From Candidatus Levyibacteriota bacterium (GTDB taxonomy: Bacteria; Patescibacteriota; Microgenomatia; Levybacterales; UBA12049): a DNA stretch of 64,000 nucleotides. Both the position numbers and the translations under genes were made by a program. Below are positions 47,777-60,824 of the stretch, in pieces (within the stretch, counting starts at the first letter, position 1; every line of letters starts with the position of its first letter). The notes beneath the pieces are model-generated. The model was not told where the DNA came from and did not search any database. It was given only the letters and a program-made list of their open reading frames with translations. The stretch lies in NCBI GenBank assembly GCA_016182185.1, contig JACOXU010000001.1, positions 15,700 to 79,699 on the forward strand, given 5' to 3'.

Positions 47777-49633
47777 TTAATCTTCTTCAGTGACAATTTC
47801 TACGGCATCTTTTACCAGGGAAACTAATTCTACTTCGTACTCGCCTTGAGGAGCTTTAATAGTAATTTTGTCACCTGGTTTATGTCCGTTTTTCTGAAGA
47901 GCCGACACGATTGGTGAATTCGAAGATAGTTTTCCTTTTCTGGCATCAACTTGGTCAGCCGGAACAATCGTAAATGTAACGGTGCCGAGTTTTGGATGAA
48001 TGATGGTAAATTGAGTTCCGGCTTCTAGAGATTCTTCTTTTGGTTTAGAGGTTCGTGGTTGATGTTCTTCATTATTCATAAGCAAACTCTCTCTAATTTG
48101 CCTTCTTCTTTCTTGCATTCTTATTCTAAGATTTTTTTCATACCGTTCCCACGCCTCATCAGTTTTTCTTGCAGGATGTGGTCTTCCTGCGTGTGACAAT
48201 CTTGAGTCCTCAACAAGAGCGGTAATTGTAGCTTGTTGATCTATATCAAAATATGCAGTTCGTCCATTTTTTAACGGAGTAATATTTTTTTTCTTACAAA
48301 GTTTTCTTAGGGTTGCATCGGATATTTCTAGTTGTTCTAAAAAATCTCTGAATGTAATTGCTCCGTCAGGAAGATTTTCTACAGTTATCTGCAAGGTAGT
48401 TTTTCCGGAAACTTTCTTTTTACTCTTTATTAAATTTAATTTATTTGCGATTTTTTCTATATCTTCTTTGGCATAGTATTTTGCCATCCTCCCCCTTAAC
48501 GGAGTTATTCCTCCGAGTAGCTTTAGGCGTATTAGGGTTTGATAATTGATTCCTAAGTAATTGGCCAATTCGTTTGTTGATAGTGCGCCCTCCGGCATAG
48601 GAGCTTTTATTTTGATACTTTTCTTTGGGTGGTCTTTTCCAAAATAAGTTTTTAAAATTCCCTGATGCCATGGTGTTAAGATGACATCGTCAATCTGCTC
48701 TCCAAATTTCCAGCCCATTGATCTGGTTACATCGAGGACCTTATCAACCGGTAAATCATTCTGAAGGGCAAATTCTATAAGTTTTACGTCCGTCTCTTCG
48801 ACTTTTTCTTCATCCTTCCCTTTTTGACCATTACTGCTTGATGTATCTTTTTGTTCTTGTCCGCTTCGGGTTCTTTCGCTCTGGGAAAAACGTATAAGTC
48901 TCTCGAGCGCATCCTGCTGTTCCGTAAACTTACCGACTTGGTCTAAAAGATCCGCACTTATATATCTTTGCCCGCCCGGATATTCTATTAATGGTAATTG
49001 TTGTCTTTCTATCGCATCAACTACTGTTCCAACAGAAGTATTTAATCTTCTTGATGCTTCCGAAAGGCTAATAAGATTTTGTTTAAGAGAAGCAGAATCC
49101 TGCTGTATGTTTTTTTGCGTAATGATATGGTCTCTAAGCCGCAATATATCATCCATATTAATAAATGCCGCAGCAGCATTACTTTTCTTATCGAACATAT
49201 ATTCAATACCTAATTTCGCAAGGATTTTTCTTAATTCTGGATACGATACTTGAAGCGTATTTGAAAGCTGAAAGAAAGAGACATGTCTTCTTCCATCCCC
49301 TTCAGTCCTTGTTCCTATAGCTGTTTGTATTTCTGGTTTTTCAGGGGTAGTTACTTTCTCCTGTTGATTTTTTCTTTGCCAAATTAAAACAGGAAGTCTT
49401 CCTAAAAGCCTTTGCTTTAAGTCGGAAAGAGAAGAAGTAAAATCTATATTCAATGATCCATTTTCGTTTCTTGAATTATCGTCATTTAAAGGCTCAGGCT
49501 CTTTCTCATCGATTGAATCAATAAGTTCAATCGTGTTTATGAGTTGTTCAAATAAAGGCGTAAATTTTTGACGCGAAAGTTTTAGCGAAGTTTCTGAAGA
49601 TAAGACAGGTGATTGTTCAATCTCAGCACTCAC
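47777..49633 (-). CDS. multi-HTH protein with a C-terminal GreA/GreB-C (FKBP-like) domain
   Basis: Four about-50-aa repeats resembling excisionase/MerR-type HTH_17, with pattern L[ST].xE.A..LGI...L.RL...G.I...R.G...YF...D. The C-terminal ~90 aa has SSNSPIVSALQKNGHKPGDKITIKAPQGEYEVELVSL, matching the GreA C-domain signature. Confidence 0.6.
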   Translation of the reverse strand: MSAEIEQSPVLSSETSLKLSRQKFTPLFEQLINTIELIDSIDEKEPEPLNDDNSRNENGSLNIDFTSSLSDLKQRLLGRLPVLIWQRKNQQEKVTTPEKPEIQTAIGTRTEGDGRRHVSFFQLSNTLQVSYPELRKILAKLGIEYMFDKKSNAAAAFINMDDILRLRDHIITQKNIQQDSASLKQNLISLSEASRRLNTSVGTVVDAIERQQLPLIEYPGGQRYISADLLDQVGKFTEQQDALERLIRFSQSERTRSGQEQKDTSSSNGQKGKDEEKVEETDVKLIEFALQNDLPVDKVLDVTRSMGWKFGEQIDDVILTPWHQGILKTYFGKDHPKKSIKIKAPMPEGALSTNELANYLGINYQTLIRLKLLGGITPLRGRMAKYYAKEDIEKIANKLNLIKSKKKVSGKTTLQITVENLPDGAITFRDFLEQLEISDATLRKLCKKKNITPLKNGRTAYFDIDQQATITALVEDSRLSHAGRPHPARKTDEAWERYEKNLRIRMQERRRQIRESLLMNNEEHQPRTSKPKEESLEAGTQFTIIHPKLGTVTFTIVPADQVDARKGKLSSNSPIVSALQKNGHKPGDKITIKAPQGEYEVELVSLVKDAVEIVTEED

Positions 49634-50428: not shown

Positions 50429-51257
50429 TCAATTAGCACTTTCTAAAAATTCCAGAGTGCCTTTTTCAAATTTTGATTTTGTAAAAAATATTGGAAATGG
50501 ATATTTGGTTTTTTTAAGATGACTTTTTTCTCCCACGAAAACAAATTCTACTTTAAATCCCAATTCATGAAGTTTTTCCCCCATGGGCAAATCAGATTTA
50601 CTATCCCCAAACGTTATAAATTTTTGAGGTTTTATTTCAGTTTCCTCAAGCCAATCAATAATTCGTCTCACGGCAAATCCCTTTCCCACATGCTTATTTT
50701 CTATGTCTGCTGCAATTACAGTTGGATCGATTTTAAAATGTTTTCCAAGATCACTTTTGTTTATAATGTTTGACAGGTCATTTATTAATGCACTTTGATT
50801 TTTTTTGTAATCAATAAGCGAATATCCGTCAGTCATCTCTACAGAAACCATAGTCTGTTTGGTATAGTCAAAAAACATACTTTTTGAATATTTTTTCTCA
50901 ACGAGATTTTTTTATTTGATTTATAAGAAATTTGGGAATTGAAATTGAGTCATCTATGTATTCTTGAATTTTTCCGTTCTCATCAAAAGTGAGCCAAGTT
51001 CCGCCCTTTTCTCCAATCACCAAAAAAATTTTCAAAATTTTTATATTCTTGATGTTTTTTAAAAGACGATTGATTACCCGATCCATAGTCCACTCTAAGG
51101 ATCTACCGGTATTTAAAATAACAGGCTCCCCTTTCTCTAGTTTTTTAATAAAGTGATTTAATATCTCAAAATCTGTAATTATTTTACTTTGAGGATTTGT
51201 GATTACACCATCAACATCAAAAATCCAGGCAGTTTGGGTCGTCTTATCTTTTGTCAT
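50429..51257 (-). pseudogene. HAD-IIB (Cof-like) hydrolase split into two ORFs (50898-51257 and 50429-50878) by a frame change
   Basis: The upstream ORF has motif I FDVDGVIT and GTWLTFDENG. The downstream ORF has KHVGKG (motif III Lys) and GDSKSD (motif IV). The ORFs are 19 nt apart and in different frames, with T-homopolymers at the junction. Combined length is about 268 aa, typical of Cof-type HADs. Confidence 0.5.
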
Positions 51258-53164: not shown

Positions 53165-54427
53165 GTGGACAATTCTAAAGATAAAATTATTCTTCATATT
53201 GATTTTGACTCCTTCTTCGCCAGCGTTGAGCAGCAGTATGATCCCAAATTACGTAACAGGCCGATAGGAGTTACAGCCAAAAACGGCAGGACTTGTATTA
53301 TTGCTTCATCACGTGAGGCAAAGCGGCTGGGGATCAAAACAGCAAGTCGTACTTATGATGCTTTGAAAATTTGCCCCACGATTCTTTTTACTCCGGCTGA
53401 TTTTGTAAAGTATTGGGAGACAAGTAAGAAATTTTTGAATATCTGCAAAGATTATTCTCCCTTTGTTGAGATCTTCTCGATCGATGAAGTCTTTATAGAT
53501 GTGACTAAAACGATGCATTTGTTTGACGGAACTTATGGAATTATTCAAAGAATTAAAGAACGCATCGAAAAGGAAATCGGAGAATATATCACTGCTTCTT
53601 TTGGAGTTTCCCATAATAAGCTTTTGGCAAAACTTGCATCAGGCATGAATAAACCAGACGGAATCTTTGAGATTAATGCCGGTAATCTTTCAGAAGTTTA
53701 TAAAAAAGCAAAACTTACGGATGTTTGCAGAATCGGAGAAAGAATTTCTAATAGATTAAATAAACTTGGAATATATAATCTTCTTGATTTAAGAACAGTG
53801 AGCGGGAATATTTTAAGAGAAGAATTCGGTAATATCTATTCTCAAATTCTCAAGAATATTGGAATAGCAAGAGACGATTCAGAGGTGATTCCCTACACAC
53901 AAGCGCCTGCTGTAAAATCAGTGGGCAGAAATTACTGTCTTGCGCAGAATGAATATGATAAGAAAAAAATTTTACAAAATGTTTATGAGCTTTTGGAAGA
54001 GGTATGTATAAAATTAAGAAGGTTAAATAAAAAAGCAAGAATATTAGGGTTTTCTCTTCGGGGAAATATAAATATTCATGGCAGAAAAACTTATAATTTT
54101 TATTTTGACAACATAAAAGAAATTCGGCCTCTTTTTAAAGAGCTTTTGAAAAAAGATATTAAAATTTTTAATCTTTCAGCTTCTTATATAAGACAGATCG
54201 GCGTTTGGGTCTCAGGGCTTGAAGAGAAAGGTAAGGTGCCATTATCTTTGTTCGATGAAACACCAAAAAGAAAGTTTTTAGATAAAACTATTGATAAAAT
54301 TAATGATAAATTCGGAGACCACACTATCAGAAACGGGTTCCTGCTCTATTCAGAAAAACTTACAACTGTCCCCAACGGCTATATGGCAGATAAATACGAA
54401 AGAACAAAATTAGCTAGTACTGGTTAA
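53165..54427 (+). CDS. dinB: DNA polymerase IV (Y-family)
   Basis: ILHIDFDSFFASVEQ matches the DinB/UmuC catalytic motif; the palm/fingers/little-finger arrangement fits the 420-aa length. Confidence 0.85.
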   Translation: MDNSKDKIILHIDFDSFFASVEQQYDPKLRNRPIGVTAKNGRTCIIASSREAKRLGIKTASRTYDALKICPTILFTPADFVKYWETSKKFLNICKDYSPFVEIFSIDEVFIDVTKTMHLFDGTYGIIQRIKERIEKEIGEYITASFGVSHNKLLAKLASGMNKPDGIFEINAGNLSEVYKKAKLTDVCRIGERISNRLNKLGIYNLLDLRTVSGNILREEFGNIYSQILKNIGIARDDSEVIPYTQAPAVKSVGRNYCLAQNEYDKKKILQNVYELLEEVCIKLRRLNKKARILGFSLRGNINIHGRKTYNFYFDNIKEIRPLFKELLKKDIKIFNLSASYIRQIGVWVSGLEEKGKVPLSLFDETPKRKFLDKTIDKINDKFGDHTIRNGFLLYSEKLTTVPNGYMADKYERTKLASTG

Positions 54428-54431
54428 AATT

Positions 54432-55241
54432 TTAGCCTATATTACAGACAAAGTTGAGTTCTTCTTCAAGCTTCTTCTTTTGCTCATTTGAAATTTCTAG
54501 CTGTTCGATCAGGTTTTTGTTTTGGCAAATTGTTTTGCACAGTACTACTCCCTGATCAAGAAACTTTTGTTTTTGGGAAGAATTTATAGATTCAAGAGAT
54601 GTTATTGGATGAAGTTTTGATTTTTCGATCAAGTCCCTTAAGCTCTCTCCCTCAGGATAGCTCCAGCTTACTACCTTCATATCATTGCATTGGGCATAAT
54701 TTAAGGCATCGGATGTAATTTTGGTATTGGTTACAAGCCAGGCGTTTGAAAAGCCGTGTTTTTCCTTCACGTCATCAAATCTTGATTTGGTATATAAAGA
54801 AACGTGGATATTTGACATTATTCCGGGCTTATTATGGAATTTACATTCGATCATCGTCTTGGTAGAGTCTTTGGTTGCGATAATATCGATCTCATGCGAA
54901 ACACATCTGCCGCTTAGAACTTGACGCACTTGTGTATTAAAACCTTCGGTTTTTAAGATTTCTGCGATAAAATCCTCAAAGGGAAATCCAGTGGGCCCCA
55001 AATCCATAATTGATTGCTTAAGGCTATATCTTGAGCGGCTAAAGGGACGTGCGATACTTAAGAATTCTGTAATATGTCTATAAATTTCAGAAGTAGGAAT
55101 ATTATCGTAGATTTTATCTTTAACATGAGTTAAAACTTTATCACGAATATCATCTGGAATTCCTGCTCTTTTTATAGATACTATAACTTTTTTTTCATCA
55201 AACGGAACTTTTTCTCCGCTTGCTTTTATAACATTTATCAT
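54432..55241 (-). CDS. ATP-cone domain fused to an Mrr-like (PD-(D/E)xK) restriction endonuclease domain
   Basis: N-terminus MINVIKASGEKVPFDEKKVIVSIKRAGI... is ATP-cone-like (as in NrdR/NrdA). The C-terminal half has ...EGFNTQV...GRCVSHEIDIIA...MIECKFHNK, matching the Mrr_cat E-x-D...E-C-K pattern. Confidence 0.65.
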   Translation of the reverse strand: MINVIKASGEKVPFDEKKVIVSIKRAGIPDDIRDKVLTHVKDKIYDNIPTSEIYRHITEFLSIARPFSRSRYSLKQSIMDLGPTGFPFEDFIAEILKTEGFNTQVRQVLSGRCVSHEIDIIATKDSTKTMIECKFHNKPGIMSNIHVSLYTKSRFDDVKEKHGFSNAWLVTNTKITSDALNYAQCNDMKVVSWSYPEGESLRDLIEKSKLHPITSLESINSSQKQKFLDQGVVLCKTICQNKNLIEQLEISNEQKKKLEEELNFVCNIG

Positions 55242-55282
55242 GCCAATTTAATCGTACATTTTCAGGATAAAATATACAAGAA

Positions 55283-57634
55283 TTATTCTAATTTTTTAAA
55301 AGCCACAAATTCGTCCTTTTCATATATTAAACGGAAATTTTTATCGTTTTTCAAATCATTCGCCAGTTGAATCTGAAACTTAAGTGAAGGCAGAGCGTAA
55401 CTGTCATTTAGAAGAAAAAATATATAATTCGCCTGCTCAATACCGTTTGGGATAACGAATATTTTTTCTCTGTGTGATAAATGTGCTCCGAGATTATTAG
55501 TCGCTGCGATACTTGAGTCCTCAGGTATGGAGGAGAAAAAACTGATGATTTCATCCTTATTTTTATAAGGCTTGGTAAACATATCCAAGTTTGAATTTTT
55601 TGCTCCGGGAAGCGGTCCGTATAAATAAGCAGCAGAAATAGAAGTGAATAACAAAATTAAAATAACATATGAGTTTTTTAGACTTGGAAGCATTTTTTTT
55701 AAAATAGTTACCCCATAGATTGAGGAAATAAATATAAATGGGATAATGGCTGAGGCATATTGATAGTAAATATCTGACAACTGCTTATTGCTGCTTAACG
55801 TATTGATAAGTAAATCCGGTAAGGCGAAAATAAGCGCTGCTGGCGATAGAATTGCCAGAAAACCCGTCGGCCAAAAAAGCATTTTAAAATATTCGATTTT
55901 TTTGGGTTCTAAAATAATACTTGCCGTTTTAAGAGGCGAAAATATTAAATTTTTAATTATACTGATAGGGCTTTCGCCGAACTCTGAATAATAAGCCAGG
56001 GCAAAGTGATCCCCTCCTCTTGCCTGAGGAATGGCCTGCCAAATTAGATAGTAAAAGAGAAAGCTTGAAATGATAAAGATAACTGTTCCTAGCAATTTCC
56101 TTTTTTTGATCAAAAAAACATATGCGCCGAAAATTGCGGCAATAACCCAAATTTGCTCTTTTGTCGATGCGGCCAGGGCAAGAAATAAAACGAATAATAA
56201 ATATTTTTTTACCTTTAGAAAATAAAAACTTCCCAAAAGAAGCGTGGTTGTAAGTGCTACAGCATGAAAATCATATAAATTAGCATACTGGACAAAGGGA
56301 CTCAATAAATACACAAAGGAAAATACAAGAGAAATATTCTTATTTTTTAAAACTTTAAGAGATAAAAGATAGATAAAATAAGCTCCAAATCCCAGAACAG
56401 CTGACTGAATAAAAAGTAGCATTTTGGGATCTTCCCAGATAAAGTAAAAAGGCGCAAAAAGAATAAGGATAAAATCCGCATGAACTGAGAGTCTTGAAAT
56501 AATATTTGTTCCGTTGGGGTCTGTAAGCTGAAAGATGTTTCCGTTTTTGGTATTCCAGACAGTTTGATCCATGTTGCCTAAATCAAATCGCCCGGTATAA
56601 AAATTATCGTGCCTTAGAAAACTGGCAATAGTAAAATAGGCAATGTATACAGCAATCAAAATTATCAAAAAAGTTTTGTGAGGATTATTTGCTAAAATTT
56701 TTTCTATTTTCAGGAATAGTTTATTTTTCAAATTTTTCCATATTAACGCAGTAATTAAAAAAATCATTTCTGATAAGATTAATATGATTCTTGAATAGAC
56801 CGCTGCAAATCCCGCCGCTTGAAGACTCATTATTTTTGATAAGCCCAAAATTAAAATTCCCTCCCTTACTCCAAGACCCATAGGTGTTATAAAGGATATG
56901 TAACCTGCAAAAAGCGAGAGAACAAAAAAGCCTGTTAACGGGAAAATTATGAGTGTATCTAAGTATGTAATTGAAGAAATTGCAAAAAAAGTACCAAACC
57001 CAAAGAGTATAAGAGACATAATAGAAATAAAGAGTACCTTTAAATTAATAGCGGGTTGATAATCAGGTAGTAAATTTTTAAATACCGACAAAAAAGGCGA
57101 GACAGGCTTATTAATGACTATTTTGTTAAAAATAAAGAATGAAGATATTAAGATTATCGAAATACTTGCTAGCAAGACCAAATTCAAATTATTTTCAAAA
57201 ATAAACGTAAAGGAGAGTAAAGAAACAATAAGACATCCAATTACAAAGAATTCTGCTTCAATCAAAAGAAGTTTCGTGACCGTCTTTTTATCAACTCCTT
57301 TTTCTGAAAAAGCAATTCCTTTACCTAGAAATGACCAAATATTTCCTGGAACAAAACGCTTAAGCTCTGCCATTCCCCACAGAAATACTACTTCTTTAAG
57401 CGGAATATTATGCCCTTTTTCTTCAAGGAGCATCTTCCAGATGAATGAGCGAAGATAATAGAAAACATTAAAGCAAATAATTCCGAGAAATAGTAAAAGG
57501 AGATTTGGGTTTTTGAGATTAACTAAGAGCGTTTGATATTGGGGAAGAAATATTTTTACTATAAAAAATATTGCGACGAGTGAAATTGGCCAACCAATAA
57601 AAAATTTTAAGAGAGAGAAAAATGTATTGCGCAT
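55283..57634 (-). CDS. large polytopic membrane protein (flippase-like UPF0104-type N-terminal region plus a DUF2079-like region)
   Basis: 783 aa with more than 20 predicted TM helices; central RFDLGNMDQTVWNTKNGNIF motif. Confidence 0.6.
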   Translation of the reverse strand: MRNTFFSLLKFFIGWPISLVAIFFIVKIFLPQYQTLLVNLKNPNLLLLFLGIICFNVFYYLRSFIWKMLLEEKGHNIPLKEVVFLWGMAELKRFVPGNIWSFLGKGIAFSEKGVDKKTVTKLLLIEAEFFVIGCLIVSLLSFTFIFENNLNLVLLASISIILISSFFIFNKIVINKPVSPFLSVFKNLLPDYQPAINLKVLFISIMSLILFGFGTFFAISSITYLDTLIIFPLTGFFVLSLFAGYISFITPMGLGVREGILILGLSKIMSLQAAGFAAVYSRIILILSEMIFLITALIWKNLKNKLFLKIEKILANNPHKTFLIILIAVYIAYFTIASFLRHDNFYTGRFDLGNMDQTVWNTKNGNIFQLTDPNGTNIISRLSVHADFILILFAPFYFIWEDPKMLLFIQSAVLGFGAYFIYLLSLKVLKNKNISLVFSFVYLLSPFVQYANLYDFHAVALTTTLLLGSFYFLKVKKYLLFVLFLALAASTKEQIWVIAAIFGAYVFLIKKRKLLGTVIFIISSFLFYYLIWQAIPQARGGDHFALAYYSEFGESPISIIKNLIFSPLKTASIILEPKKIEYFKMLFWPTGFLAILSPAALIFALPDLLINTLSSNKQLSDIYYQYASAIIPFIFISSIYGVTILKKMLPSLKNSYVILILLFTSISAAYLYGPLPGAKNSNLDMFTKPYKNKDEIISFFSSIPEDSSIAATNNLGAHLSHREKIFVIPNGIEQANYIFFLLNDSYALPSLKFQIQLANDLKNDKNFRLIYEKDEFVAFKKLE

Positions 57635-57643
57635 TTTTACTTG

Positions 57644-57716
57644 CGAGCCGCCGGGGAGTCGAACCCCGAACCGATTCCTTAAGAGGGAATTGCTCTGCCG
57701 GTTGAGCTAGCGGCCC
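57644..57716 (-). tRNA. tRNA-Lys (anticodon CTT)
   Basis: Reverse complement GGGCCGCTAGCTCAACCGGCAGAGCAATTCCCTCTTAAGGAATCGGTTCGGGGTTCGACTCCCCGGCGGCTCG. Confidence 0.9.
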
Positions 57717-57770
57717 ATCTTTATTAAATTTTCAATATTTAGTATACTACATTAGGCCAATTATGCAACT

Positions 57771-57843
57771 GCGCCTGTAGCTCAATGGATAGAGCACGCG
57801 GCTTCGGACCGTGGGGTTGGGGGTTCGACTCCCTTCAGGCGCG
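57771..57843 (+). tRNA. tRNA-Arg (anticodon TCG)
   Basis: GCGCCTGTAGCTCAATGGATAGAGCACGCGGCTTCGGACCGTGGGGTTGGGGGTTCGACTCCCTTCAGGCGCG. Confidence 0.9.
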
Positions 57844-57850
57844 CTCACTT

Positions 57851-58060
57851 ATGACTATAAAAGAAGCTCTTCAAAACGATCTTGTAACTAGATACTATGA
57901 TTTAGAGACAGATACGTTTGCGCGAGACAGATTCAGGCTGGTTCTAAATAAAAAAAATAATATACTTATGCCAACTCCGGAGAACTACACTATCGAAGAA
58001 ACAGAAGCCCTAGTTACTCTAAAAGAAAAAGTCAATGCAAAACCCGATTTTTATAAATAG
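57851..58060 (+). CDS. hypothetical small protein (69 aa)
   Basis: The ORF-track entry 57785-58060 overlaps tRNA-Arg. The first Met after the tRNA (MTIKEALQNDL) gives a 69-aa product. Confidence 0.35.
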   Translation: MTIKEALQNDLVTRYYDLETDTFARDRFRLVLNKKNNILMPTPENYTIEETEALVTLKEKVNAKPDFYK

Positions 58061-60164: not shown

Positions 60165-60824
60165 CTATAAGAATTTGCTTAAATTGAAGGATTTGCGGTG
60201 GATTTTGGAAAGGCCGTATTTTTTCAAAGCTTCTCTGTGCTTTTTTGTCCCATAACCTTTATTTTTTGAAAAACCATATCCCGGATACTTTTTATTTAAT
60301 TTTCTCATTAATTTGTCTCGGTAAACTTTTGCTATTATTGAGGCAGCAGCAATTGAAATTGATTTTTGGTCACCTTTGATTATCGCTTTTTGATTTACGA
60401 GTCCAATCCCGCGAATATAGCGGACATGGAAACCGTCTGCTAAAACAAAAATAGGAGGTTTACCTTTGTTAATTTCCATAATTTGCCATAATATTAATTT
60501 TATAGCTTTTCTTATTGCCATTTGAGTTGCTTTTCCGATTCCAAATTTATTTATTACGGAAAGGTTTATCACAGATGTCGTGTGCAATAGCGACTGTTTG
60601 GTTATTTCTTTTGAGATGACTTCTCGTTTTTTTGAATTTAAAAGTTTTGAATCATTGATTTCTGAAAGCACCCCTGTTTTAAAATACGCACCTTTTTTAA
60701 ATATTACGGCACCTGCGACTACAGGGCCTGCAAAAGCGCCTCTGCCTACTTCATCAACCCCAATTACAAAACTACAATTTTTCTTCCAAAGTTTTTGTTC
60801 TTCTTTAAAAGTCGGCTTTTTCAC
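60165..60824 (-). CDS. rnhB: ribonuclease HII
   Basis: VIGVDEVGRGAFAGPVVAGAVIF matches the RNase HII catalytic motif. Confidence 0.9.
   Translation of the reverse strand: MKKPTFKEEQKLWKKNCSFVIGVDEVGRGAFAGPVVAGAVIFKKGAYFKTGVLSEINDSKLLNSKKREVISKEITKQSLLHTTSVINLSVINKFGIGKATQMAIRKAIKLILWQIMEINKGKPPIFVLADGFHVRYIRGIGLVNQKAIIKGDQKSISIAAASIIAKVYRDKLMRKLNKKYPGYGFSKNKGYGTKKHREALKKYGLSKIHRKSFNLSKFL

Follow-up and report, generated by a model that had tools for sequence, protein, structure and literature searches.

A conserved Levybacteria gene joins an ATP-cone to an AF1548-type nuclease and a SAM/(HhH)2-like domain: a candidate nucleotide-gated nuclease

ATP-cone domains are known from the ribonucleotide reductases (RNR) NrdA, NrdD and NrdB and from NrdR, in which the domain is joined either to the reductase or to a Zn-ribbon. 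In S. coelicolor NrdR the nucleotides are touched by residues V48, K50, R51, E56 and K62, of which R51 and E56 make phosphate and adenine-N6 contacts, and mutation of the contact residues results in loss of nucleotide or DNA binding (PMC9110341). A nuclease relevant to the protein described here is AF1548 of Archaeoglobus fulgidus (PDB 1Y88; Mrr_cat and AF1548-like_C domains), which was predicted in 2007 to be a restriction endonuclease with D38, E51 and K53 (native numbering) as catalytic residues (PMC1821046). That prediction and the placement of the protein in the Mrr_cat group are all that was found in the literature on AF1548/1Y88. Searches of the accessible literature produced no paper describing or testing a fusion of an ATP-cone with a nuclease, and no study of an ATP-cone outside RNR and NrdR. 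The paper of 2000 in which the ATP-cone was first defined, as an 'evolutionarily mobile' domain, reportedly listed non-RNR fusions, and such fusions therefore may have been noticed earlier.

The window, by which is meant the whole 64-kb stretch of DNA that was analyzed, encodes on its minus strand an ATG-started ORF of 269 aa whose limits in the ORF list of the window coincide exactly with those of the gene in Table 1. The protein comprises three domains: an ATP-cone, an AF1548-type nuclease and a SAM/(HhH)2-like module. The AF2 model of the protein has a pLDDT of 90. The sequence and its domain architecture already are public under generic names, as an NCBI record identical to the 269-aa protein is named 'restriction endonuclease [Candidatus Levybacteria bacterium]'. 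The only NCBIfam matches to the protein were to YraN, and all were sub-threshold.

Table 1. Positions in the window of the ATP-cone nuclease gene, its parts and its immediate neighbors
Feature	Position	Strand	Remarks
ATP-cone / AF1548-type PD-(D/E)xK nuclease / SAM-(HhH)2-like gene	54432..55241	-	stop codon 54432..54434
ATP-cone domain, aa 1-80	55002..55241	-	beta-hairpin 3-13; helices 16-25, 30-43, 50-64, 68-79
Junction motif L81-G-P-T/S-G-F/Y-P-F-E89	54975..55001	-	sensor to first nuclease helix
PD-(D/E)xK nuclease domain, aa 86-193	54663..54986	-	
Catalytic core, aa 116-134: H116-E117-I-D119 ... E132-C-K134	54840..54896	-	
C-terminal helical domain, aa 197-269, AF1548-like_C, SAM-like/(HhH)2 fold	54435..54653	-	
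DUF2079 membrane protein, 783 aa	55283..57634	-	upstream, 41 bp from start codon; Pfam 203.8 bits
Y-family DNA polymerase (DinB-like)	53165..54427	+	IMS 150.7 bits, plus IMS_C; convergent

The N-terminal domain matches the Pfam ATP-cone profile PF03477 between aa 2 and 55 (E=7.4e-7) with 30.1 bits against a gathering score of 25.8, which is ~4 bits over threshold for a match confined to profile positions 1-61 of 88. A precomputed PF03477 match is present in nearly all listed homologues, and the domain has the ATP-cone fold, an N-terminal beta-hairpin followed by a helical bundle of ~90 residues. When a profile of the N-terminal 90 residues was searched against the PDB, E. coli NrdR was retrieved (E=0.003), and NrdR proteins are the closest ATP-cone relatives both by profile and by structure. 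The ungapped alignment pairs viKasgekeaFseekl of the profile with VVKSNDVREPFNEEKL of E. coli NrdR. The motif of the window protein reads V4-I-K6-A-S-G-E-K-V-P-F14-D-E-K-K18-V, with K6 aligned to K53 of E. coli NrdR, equivalent to K50 of S. coelicolor NrdR, and K18 aligned to S. coelicolor K62. Thus, V4, K6 and K18 are kept among the equivalents of the S. coelicolor contact residues, R51 is replaced by A7 and E56 by V12. The arginine equivalent to R51 also is missing from E. coli NrdR, which has K-S there, and at position 12 glutamate is the profile consensus, yet the position is variable across the family. In an alignment of 30 sequences from Patescibacteria, Bacteroidota, Balneolales, Chlorobiota and Acidobacteriota, which are 39-63% identical to the window protein, K6 is invariant and G9, F14, K18, S22, G27, T50 and I53 are conserved to at least 90%. 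Residues K6, F14, K18 and T50 are candidates for nucleotide contact. The phosphate-binding lysines and the hairpin are conserved in the alignments, but adenine-specific recognition cannot be asserted: with A7 and V12 at the positions of R51 and E56, and position 12 variable, the identity of the ligand and even binding itself are uncertain.

The sensor domain passes into the first nuclease helix through a junction, LGPTGFPFE, in which L81, G82, P83, G85, P87, F88 and E89 are invariant among the 30 sequences from several phyla, and which is the most conserved stretch in the whole 269-aa protein. The junction would couple the ATP-cone to the nuclease, and E89 at its end probably is the first acidic active-site residue. 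The nuclease domain matches Mrr_cat (PF04471) over aa 85-190 (E=7e-10; 39.5 bits against a gathering score of 21) and consists of helix 86-98, strands 102-110, 115-124 and 127-134, helix 145-162, strand 166-171, helix 177-185 and strand 188-191. It carries the motifs H116-E-I-D119-I-I-A and I131-E132-C-K134; the codons for D119, E132, C133 and K134 were confirmed directly on the window DNA. Residues E89, H116, E117, D119, E132 and K134 are invariant in the 30 cross-phylum sequences as well as in a separate alignment of 48 close sequences, and D119, E132 and K134 align with the predicted catalytic triad of AF1548. Further residues invariant across the 30 sequences are G100, G111, C113, Y150, R154, D157, T171-N-T173, C185, W193, P196 and P212, and L74, K75 and H136 are among others that are conserved to at least 90%. 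A metal site possibly is formed by C113, H116, H136 and C185.

The C-terminal domain scores 19.5 bits against AF1548-like_C (PF22357; aa 212-261), under the cut-off of 23.9. Its fold class is typical for non-sequence-specific DNA binding and the domain probably is a DNA-binding module of this kind, or an oligomerization module. The structure matches beyond AF1548 are to generic PD-(D/E)xK cores, namely NucS (12.9), AspBHI (11.5) and Can2 (11.2), and then FokI, MspJI, Card1 and Hjc; the nuclease fold also matches the nuclease domains of Cdn1 and NucC. An earlier, sequence-only reading of this DNA had proposed an ATP-cone fused to an Mrr-like nuclease at this position, and the ORF and the motifs that it quoted are present exactly as claimed. 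The profile matches and the invariant E/D/E/K residues bear out both the N-terminal ATP-cone and the catalytic pattern; the absence of an ATP-cone HMM match and the loss of the catalytic E/D/K residues had been named as grounds for rejecting the proposal, and neither was observed. The term Mrr-like holds for membership of the Mrr_cat family, but the enzyme is AF1548-type and is not Mrr proper, as no Mrr_N domain is present. Likewise, both of the proposed domains exist, but the third, C-terminal SAM/(HhH)2-like module had been overlooked.

A word-indexed search identified 3264 homologues at E<=1e-3, the best 120 of which all are 264-290 aa in length with 55-100% identity. An exhaustive search of 1.84 billion cluster representatives, with clusters at 50% identity, found 1448 clusters with E<=1e-3, of which 1006 reach E<=1e-10 and 557 reach E<=1e-30. 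With these homologues and the 557 clusters behind it, the homology is no chance match. A full-length match that begins at profile position 1-4 is shown by 148 of the best 150 representatives; the fusion of ATP-cone and nuclease thus is the standard form of the family. When one genome per GTDB species was considered, at least 597 loci encode a relative. Relatives occur in the Patescibacteria (Levy-, Gottesman-, Davies-, Shapiro- and Saccharibacteria, and Parcubacteria), in cultured and uncultured Bacteroidota (Bizionia, Maribacter, Winogradskyella, Salegentibacter, Fluviicola, Owenweeksia, Lacibacter and Roseivirga), and in Balneolales, Chlorobiota, Kapaibacteriota, Pyrinomonadaceae and Chlamydiota. 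Across Levybacteria the sequences are 55-63% identical, and full-length comparisons between phyla give ~40%. Homologues are absent from 50,697 phage genome records and from IMG/VR, and plasmids yielded only two full-length matches, both within metabolic cassettes. Overall, the gene is stably inherited on the chromosome in organisms with very small genomes, and its degree of conservation is unusual.

Gene context was assessed by clustering the ORFs from 84 loci and annotating the recurrent clusters. In Levybacteria-like genomes the common order is DUF2079 > nuclease gene < DinB, into which a Transgly_assoc gene or BipA is inserted at times. The DUF2079 gene lies upstream on the same strand in 32 related loci, and 27 of 34 measured gaps are no longer than 117 bp (median 42 bp). 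It probably is co-transcribed with the nuclease gene in the window; the gap between the two holds no terminator-like site, and the single promoter-like match in it does not exceed chance. As promoter and terminator counts in a scan of 54000..58000 were not above those of shuffles, claims about transcription units are not rested on that scan. A tRNA-Lys gene is situated directly upstream of the DUF2079 gene in the window. On the other side, the convergence with dinB reported in the sequence-only reading was recovered, with 4 bp between the stop codons of the two genes. A convergent DinB gene is found at -27..+33 bp in 14 loci and no farther than 1.5 kb away in 24, all of them in the Levybacteria-like clade. 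Because the genes are arranged tail-to-tail they form no operon and are not co-transcribed, and the DinB-like gene is context only, outside the unit. The linkage to DinB and DUF2079 is missing in other classes of Patescibacteria; among the 84 loci, dinB linkage was not seen in Gottesman-, Davies-, Shapiro- or Saccharibacteria or in any other phylum. The neighbors in the window include, besides DUF2079 and DinB, a polysaccharide deacetylase, a serine hydrolase, RNase HII and tRNAs.

The setting in other phyla is a cassette. In 17 loci from Bacteroidota and relatives, a beta-CASP metallo-hydrolase gene (Beta-Casp, RMMBL and Lactamase_B domains) comes after the orthologue in the same orientation, at a gap of 33 bp or less in 16 of the 17 and with a median of 3 bp. 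A thymidine phosphorylase family gene of archaeal type (NCBIfam PRK04350, about 658-659 bits; 490 bits against the AMP phosphorylase model, which is under the cut-off of that model) and a Prs-like gene (PRK07199, 388 bits) adjoin the orthologue in four further or overlapping loci, and in one of these (L039) directly follow the beta-CASP gene. The complete, tight four-gene cassette is present on two RefSeq plasmids, of Pontibacter actiniarum (Bacteroidota) and Criblamydia sequanensis (Chlamydiota), where RefSeq names it 'ATP cone domain-containing protein > MBL fold metallo-hydrolase > thymidine phosphorylase family protein > ribose-phosphate pyrophosphokinase'. The cassette starts with the orthologue in Bacteroidota, Chlamydiota, Acidobacteriota and Kapaibacteriota. 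In Bacteroidota-type loci, one to five universal stress protein genes in tandem often lie ahead of it, together with a 144-aa protein (cluster c16), located upstream of Flavobacteriia orthologues, for which Pfam and NCBIfam have no match and the PDB has only a marginal TPR match that probably is spurious; genes for a P-type ATPase, thioredoxin and PLD/cardiolipin synthase are close by. The Criblamydia cassette is flanked by genes for a P-type ATPase, phosphoketolase, glucan phosphorylase and acetate kinase. Two published gene sets are relevant here: in Bradyrhizobium diazoefficiens, microoxia raises both the proteins and the transcripts of the MBL/Prs/TP trio bll3115-bll3117 (PMC6515984), and the low-oxygen-activated lxa locus of Burkholderia cenocepacia, which resembles the islands that surround the orthologues of Bacteroidota and Chlamydiota, includes USPs, acetate kinase, a cation ATPase and a 'metal-dependent RNase' (PMC3721108). 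These two reports bear only on the character of the islands, and an ATP-cone nuclease is not claimed for either organism.

Taken as a whole, the gene is best read as encoding a nucleotide-gated nuclease for nucleic-acid turnover that is tied to energy or nucleotide status and is not devoted to restriction or defence, a reading in which confidence is evenly balanced. Judged separately and from sequence, it is likely that the protein is an active nuclease regulated via a ligand-binding ATP-cone, and a role in turnover or salvage during energy or oxygen limitation is proposed only tentatively. Within the PD-(D/E)xK (Mrr_cat) superfamily, the protein would belong to the AF1548 branch, as an endonuclease that is stably chromosomal and predicted to be catalytically competent, and its SAM/(HhH)2-like domain may grip nucleic acid without sequence specificity. 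Putative binding of adenine nucleotides (ATP, dATP or a related one) to the ATP-cone would shift the conformation or oligomeric state and turn the nuclease on or off, a switch of the only kind known for the ATP-cone in RNRs and NrdR. The junction could then pass the change straight to the first active-site helix. Nucleotide binding, the direction of gating, the substrate and the physiological role are presumed in this scheme. Where the cassette exists, it may form a route from polynucleotide to nucleotide and on to base and phosphoribose that is turned on in low-oxygen or stress islands; in the reduced Levybacteria genome the nuclease gene has no such cassette. Turnover is the likeliest role because the orthologue heads a cassette that also encodes two enzymes of nucleotide salvage and another nuclease-type hydrolase, situated in stress and low-oxygen islands, in at least four phyla. 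As tblastn with beta-CASP, TP, Prs, Usp, c16 and BipA produced no match in the window, the role is borrowed from orthologues that are ~40% identical; this transfer to the Levybacteria gene is the weakest step, and the salvage idea leaves unexplained DUF2079 and the convergent dinB, the sole conserved partners in the gene's own clade.

The scheme depends on a functional sensor. If the ATP-cone were degenerate and had become a structural or oligomerization module, the protein would be a constitutive AF1548-like nuclease, as might be suggested by the partial Pfam match and the loss of the R51 and E56 equivalents. However, the positions conserved across phyla cluster on the nucleotide-binding face known from NrdR, E. 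coli NrdR binds nucleotides even though it also is without that arginine, and the ATP-cone is kept in almost all of the best representatives, which makes degeneration very doubtful. The closeness of the ATP-cone to NrdR, together with the finding of no NrdR or second ATP-cone ORF in the window, is consistent with the converse arrangement in which the protein is a non-catalytic, NrdR-like nucleotide-responsive regulator whose nuclease fold and (HhH)2 domain replace the Zn-ribbon in DNA binding. The invariance of the catalytic residues over hundreds of clusters would be unexpected in an inactivated nuclease fold, and no nrd genes were found near orthologues in loci L001-L084 or L085-L087, so that regulation of this kind is extremely improbable.

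If the gated nuclease is accepted, its purpose could lie in DNA repair or in defence instead of turnover. A repair or fork nuclease, either structure-specific (XPF/Mus81/UvrC-like) or mismatch-type (NucS-like), might act as a partner of DinB, with the ATP-cone tying cutting to the dNTP supply. The local dinB synteny, the resemblance to NucS and the fit of the (HhH)2-type domain argue for this role, but the linkage is limited to one clade, in tail-to-tail orientation, and could be explained by shared ancestry alone; moreover, the likeness to NucS is that of a generic nuclease core (~105 residues aligned at 18% identity) and no ERCC4 or NucS family HMM is matched. A repair function is viewed as unlikely. 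The sequence-only reading had offered a defence role, which in its fuller form would be an anti-phage or Type IV-like system whose ATP-cone senses ATP/dATP pools altered by infection and frees a non-specific nuclease, leading to abortive infection, on the model of the PD-(D/E)xK effectors that are gated by CARF or SAVED. This might be supported by the NCBI label 'restriction endonuclease' on family members, by the fold matches to the nuclease domains of Can2, Card1, Cdn1, NucC, MspJI and AspBHI, and by a layout of sensor plus nuclease as in known ligand-gated defence effectors. PADLOC searches with the protein also gave matches to CARF-PDDEXK models, but these were weak (best E=3.5e-4) and confined to the nuclease core, beyond which no PADLOC family reached significance, and the gene thus is not classed as a defence system. 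Neither the window gene nor the 84 clustered loci have conserved defence genes, methyltransferases or mobile elements nearby, the synteny with housekeeping genes is stable in 32 Patescibacteria loci, the sequence is strongly conserved, and homologues are lacking in the phage and viral collections. The defence role was not upheld by these data and would be distinctly improbable.

The nucleotide-gated turnover nuclease would have consequences at several levels. If the nuclease is under the control of an ATP-cone switch, an ATP/dATP signal would decide when cells cut nucleic acids, and the known uses of the sensor would widen. In its furthest extension, which is rather unlikely as a whole, the protein would be the first enzyme outside ribonucleotide reduction to be controlled by an ATP-cone, a nuclease gated by energy charge or dATP that opens a nucleic-acid catabolic route (nuclease, beta-CASP hydrolase, NMP/nucleoside phosphorylase and Prs-like kinase) used in hypoxia or dormancy by Bacteroidota, Chlamydiota and others, and in ultra-small Patescibacteria a near-core gene for nucleotide scavenging. 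Bacteria of the candidate phyla radiation (CPR) are thought to depend on salvaged nucleotides, and a conserved nucleotide-sensing nuclease is a plausible piece of the CPR core economy. The family would also lend a function to the orphan structure AF1548, and it would provide a testable entry to a conserved, uncharacterized cassette of ATP-cone nuclease, beta-CASP, thymidine/AMP-phosphorylase-family and Prs-like genes in the low-oxygen or stress islands of several phyla. The finding would carry clearly greater weight if the nucleotide gating, or the link to a catabolic cassette in hypoxia or starvation, is true, and would reduce to a refinement of annotation if the protein is an ordinary constitutive nuclease.

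The family can be compared with several known systems. AF1548 is alignable over both the nuclease and C-terminal domains, with H116 of the family replaced by Q, and the match starts at chain residue 23, which corresponds to residue 91 of the query. At most ~22 residues thus precede the nuclease in AF1548, and there is no space for an ATP-cone; as AF1548 is a structural-genomics protein without known function, the match provides the fold and not the mechanism. Mrr, a Type IV enzyme, shares the Mrr_cat catalytic family and the D-(D/E)xK motif, but the family does not match the Mrr_N winged helix of modified-DNA recognition, has other accessory domains and a non-defence context, and is far better conserved than is usual for restriction enzymes. 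The order of nuclease followed by a SAM/(HhH)2-like domain is common to the family, XPF/Mus81/Hef and the C-terminal half of UvrC, and suggests structure-directed rather than sequence-directed DNA binding; the likeness to XPF/Mus81 is architectural only, and the ERKxxxD motif is lacking. NucS/EndoMS differs in having an N-terminal DNA-binding domain and a PCNA/clamp motif, both of which are missing from the family. Whereas the ATP-cones of NrdR and the RNRs are joined to a Zn-ribbon or a reductase, that of the family starts from residue 2, has no accompanying Zn-ribbon and is joined to a nuclease. The CARF/SAVED-gated PD-(D/E)xK nucleases Can2, Card1, Cdn1, Cap4 and NucC respond to a dedicated second messenger, and, unlike these, the family is not encoded near CRISPR or CBASS genes, carries an ATP-cone in the place of the sensor and presumably has a primary metabolite, ATP or dATP, as its ligand. 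The protein as proposed would join two kinds of system that are known already, the ligand-gated nucleases and ATP-cone allostery.

The gene for the ATP-cone nuclease may be transcribed as a single unit with tRNA-Lys(ctt) and the gene for the DUF2079 membrane protein, in the order tRNA-Lys, DUF2079, nuclease, as all three are encoded on one strand and only 8 bp separate the tRNA gene from the DUF2079 gene that follows it. The N-terminus of a mechanical 91-aa ORF nearby is probably spurious because tRNA-Arg(tcg) overlaps its start. Among 12 ORFs scanned from 47.8 to 60.8 kb, DinB and RNase HII (Pfam, 112.9 bits), the gene for which is 5 kb from that of the ATP-cone nuclease, were the only other nucleic-acid enzymes. 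The same region includes a 618-aa protein that unites HTH_17 and GreA/GreB C-terminal domains, an unusual combination; most of this protein is without a Pfam match. A further pair of neighbouring ORFs, which do not share a reading frame, jointly look like one HAD-family hydrolase, with a DVDGV motif in the upstream part and GDSKSD in the downstream part. A split gene, a pseudogene with a frameshift or a mistake in the assembly could each account for the pair.

Locations of features in the window and at related loci
Feature	Location	Strand
618-aa protein	window 47777..49633	-
HAD-like ORF, GDSKSD	window 50429..50878	-
HAD-like ORF, DVDGV	window 50898..51257	-
Nuclease domain of ATP-cone nuclease	window 54663..54986	-
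tRNA-Lys(ctt)	window 57643..57716	-
tRNA-Arg(tcg)	window 57771..57844	+
Mechanical 91-aa ORF	window 57785..58060	
RNase HII gene	window 60165..60824	-
c16 gene (example)	L068, 6668-7102	
Four-gene cassette	L086, Pontibacter actiniarum plasmid NZ_CP021236.1, 1972-6597	
Four-gene cassette	L087, Criblamydia sequanensis plasmid NZ_LK031773.1, 8001-12608	

Many GTDB records of related loci (L008-L011, L018, L020-L024, L028, L029, L033 and others) are titled 'uncultured Gammaproteobacteria bacterium'. These records display the Levybacteria-type synteny, in which the DUF2079 gene precedes the nuclease gene and dinB is convergent, and encode proteins that are 48-61% identical; the titles therefore are probably wrong. 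The Pacearchaeota label of a 79%-identical protein (P0006) is likewise doubtful.

Flavobacteriia orthologues of the ATP-cone nuclease are directly preceded by genes for ~144-aa proteins of cluster c16 (L040, L044, L045, L052, L062, L068, L069, L083, and L084), usually at a distance of 21-67 bp and on the same strand. The c16 proteins matched no Pfam or NCBIfam entry. On two plasmids, an ATP-cone protein gene leads a tight four-gene cassette that continues with genes for an MBL-fold (beta-CASP) hydrolase, a thymidine phosphorylase family protein and a ribose-phosphate pyrophosphokinase. The Criblamydia cassette is flanked by genes for a P-type ATPase, phosphoketolase, glucan phosphorylase and acetate kinase. 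The cassette resembles a module for nucleic-acid/nucleotide catabolism, so far uncharacterised, that belongs to low-oxygen islands.

Residues C113, H116, H136, and C185 in the nuclease domain are located near to the catalytic residues of the ATP-cone nuclease. Three of them, both cysteines and one histidine, do not vary, and the other histidine is almost invariant. The four residues may form an additional site that binds metal or one that is sensitive to redox state. In contrast to the histidine of the ATP-cone nuclease family at position 116, the Archaeoglobus fulgidus relative AF1548 possesses glutamine.
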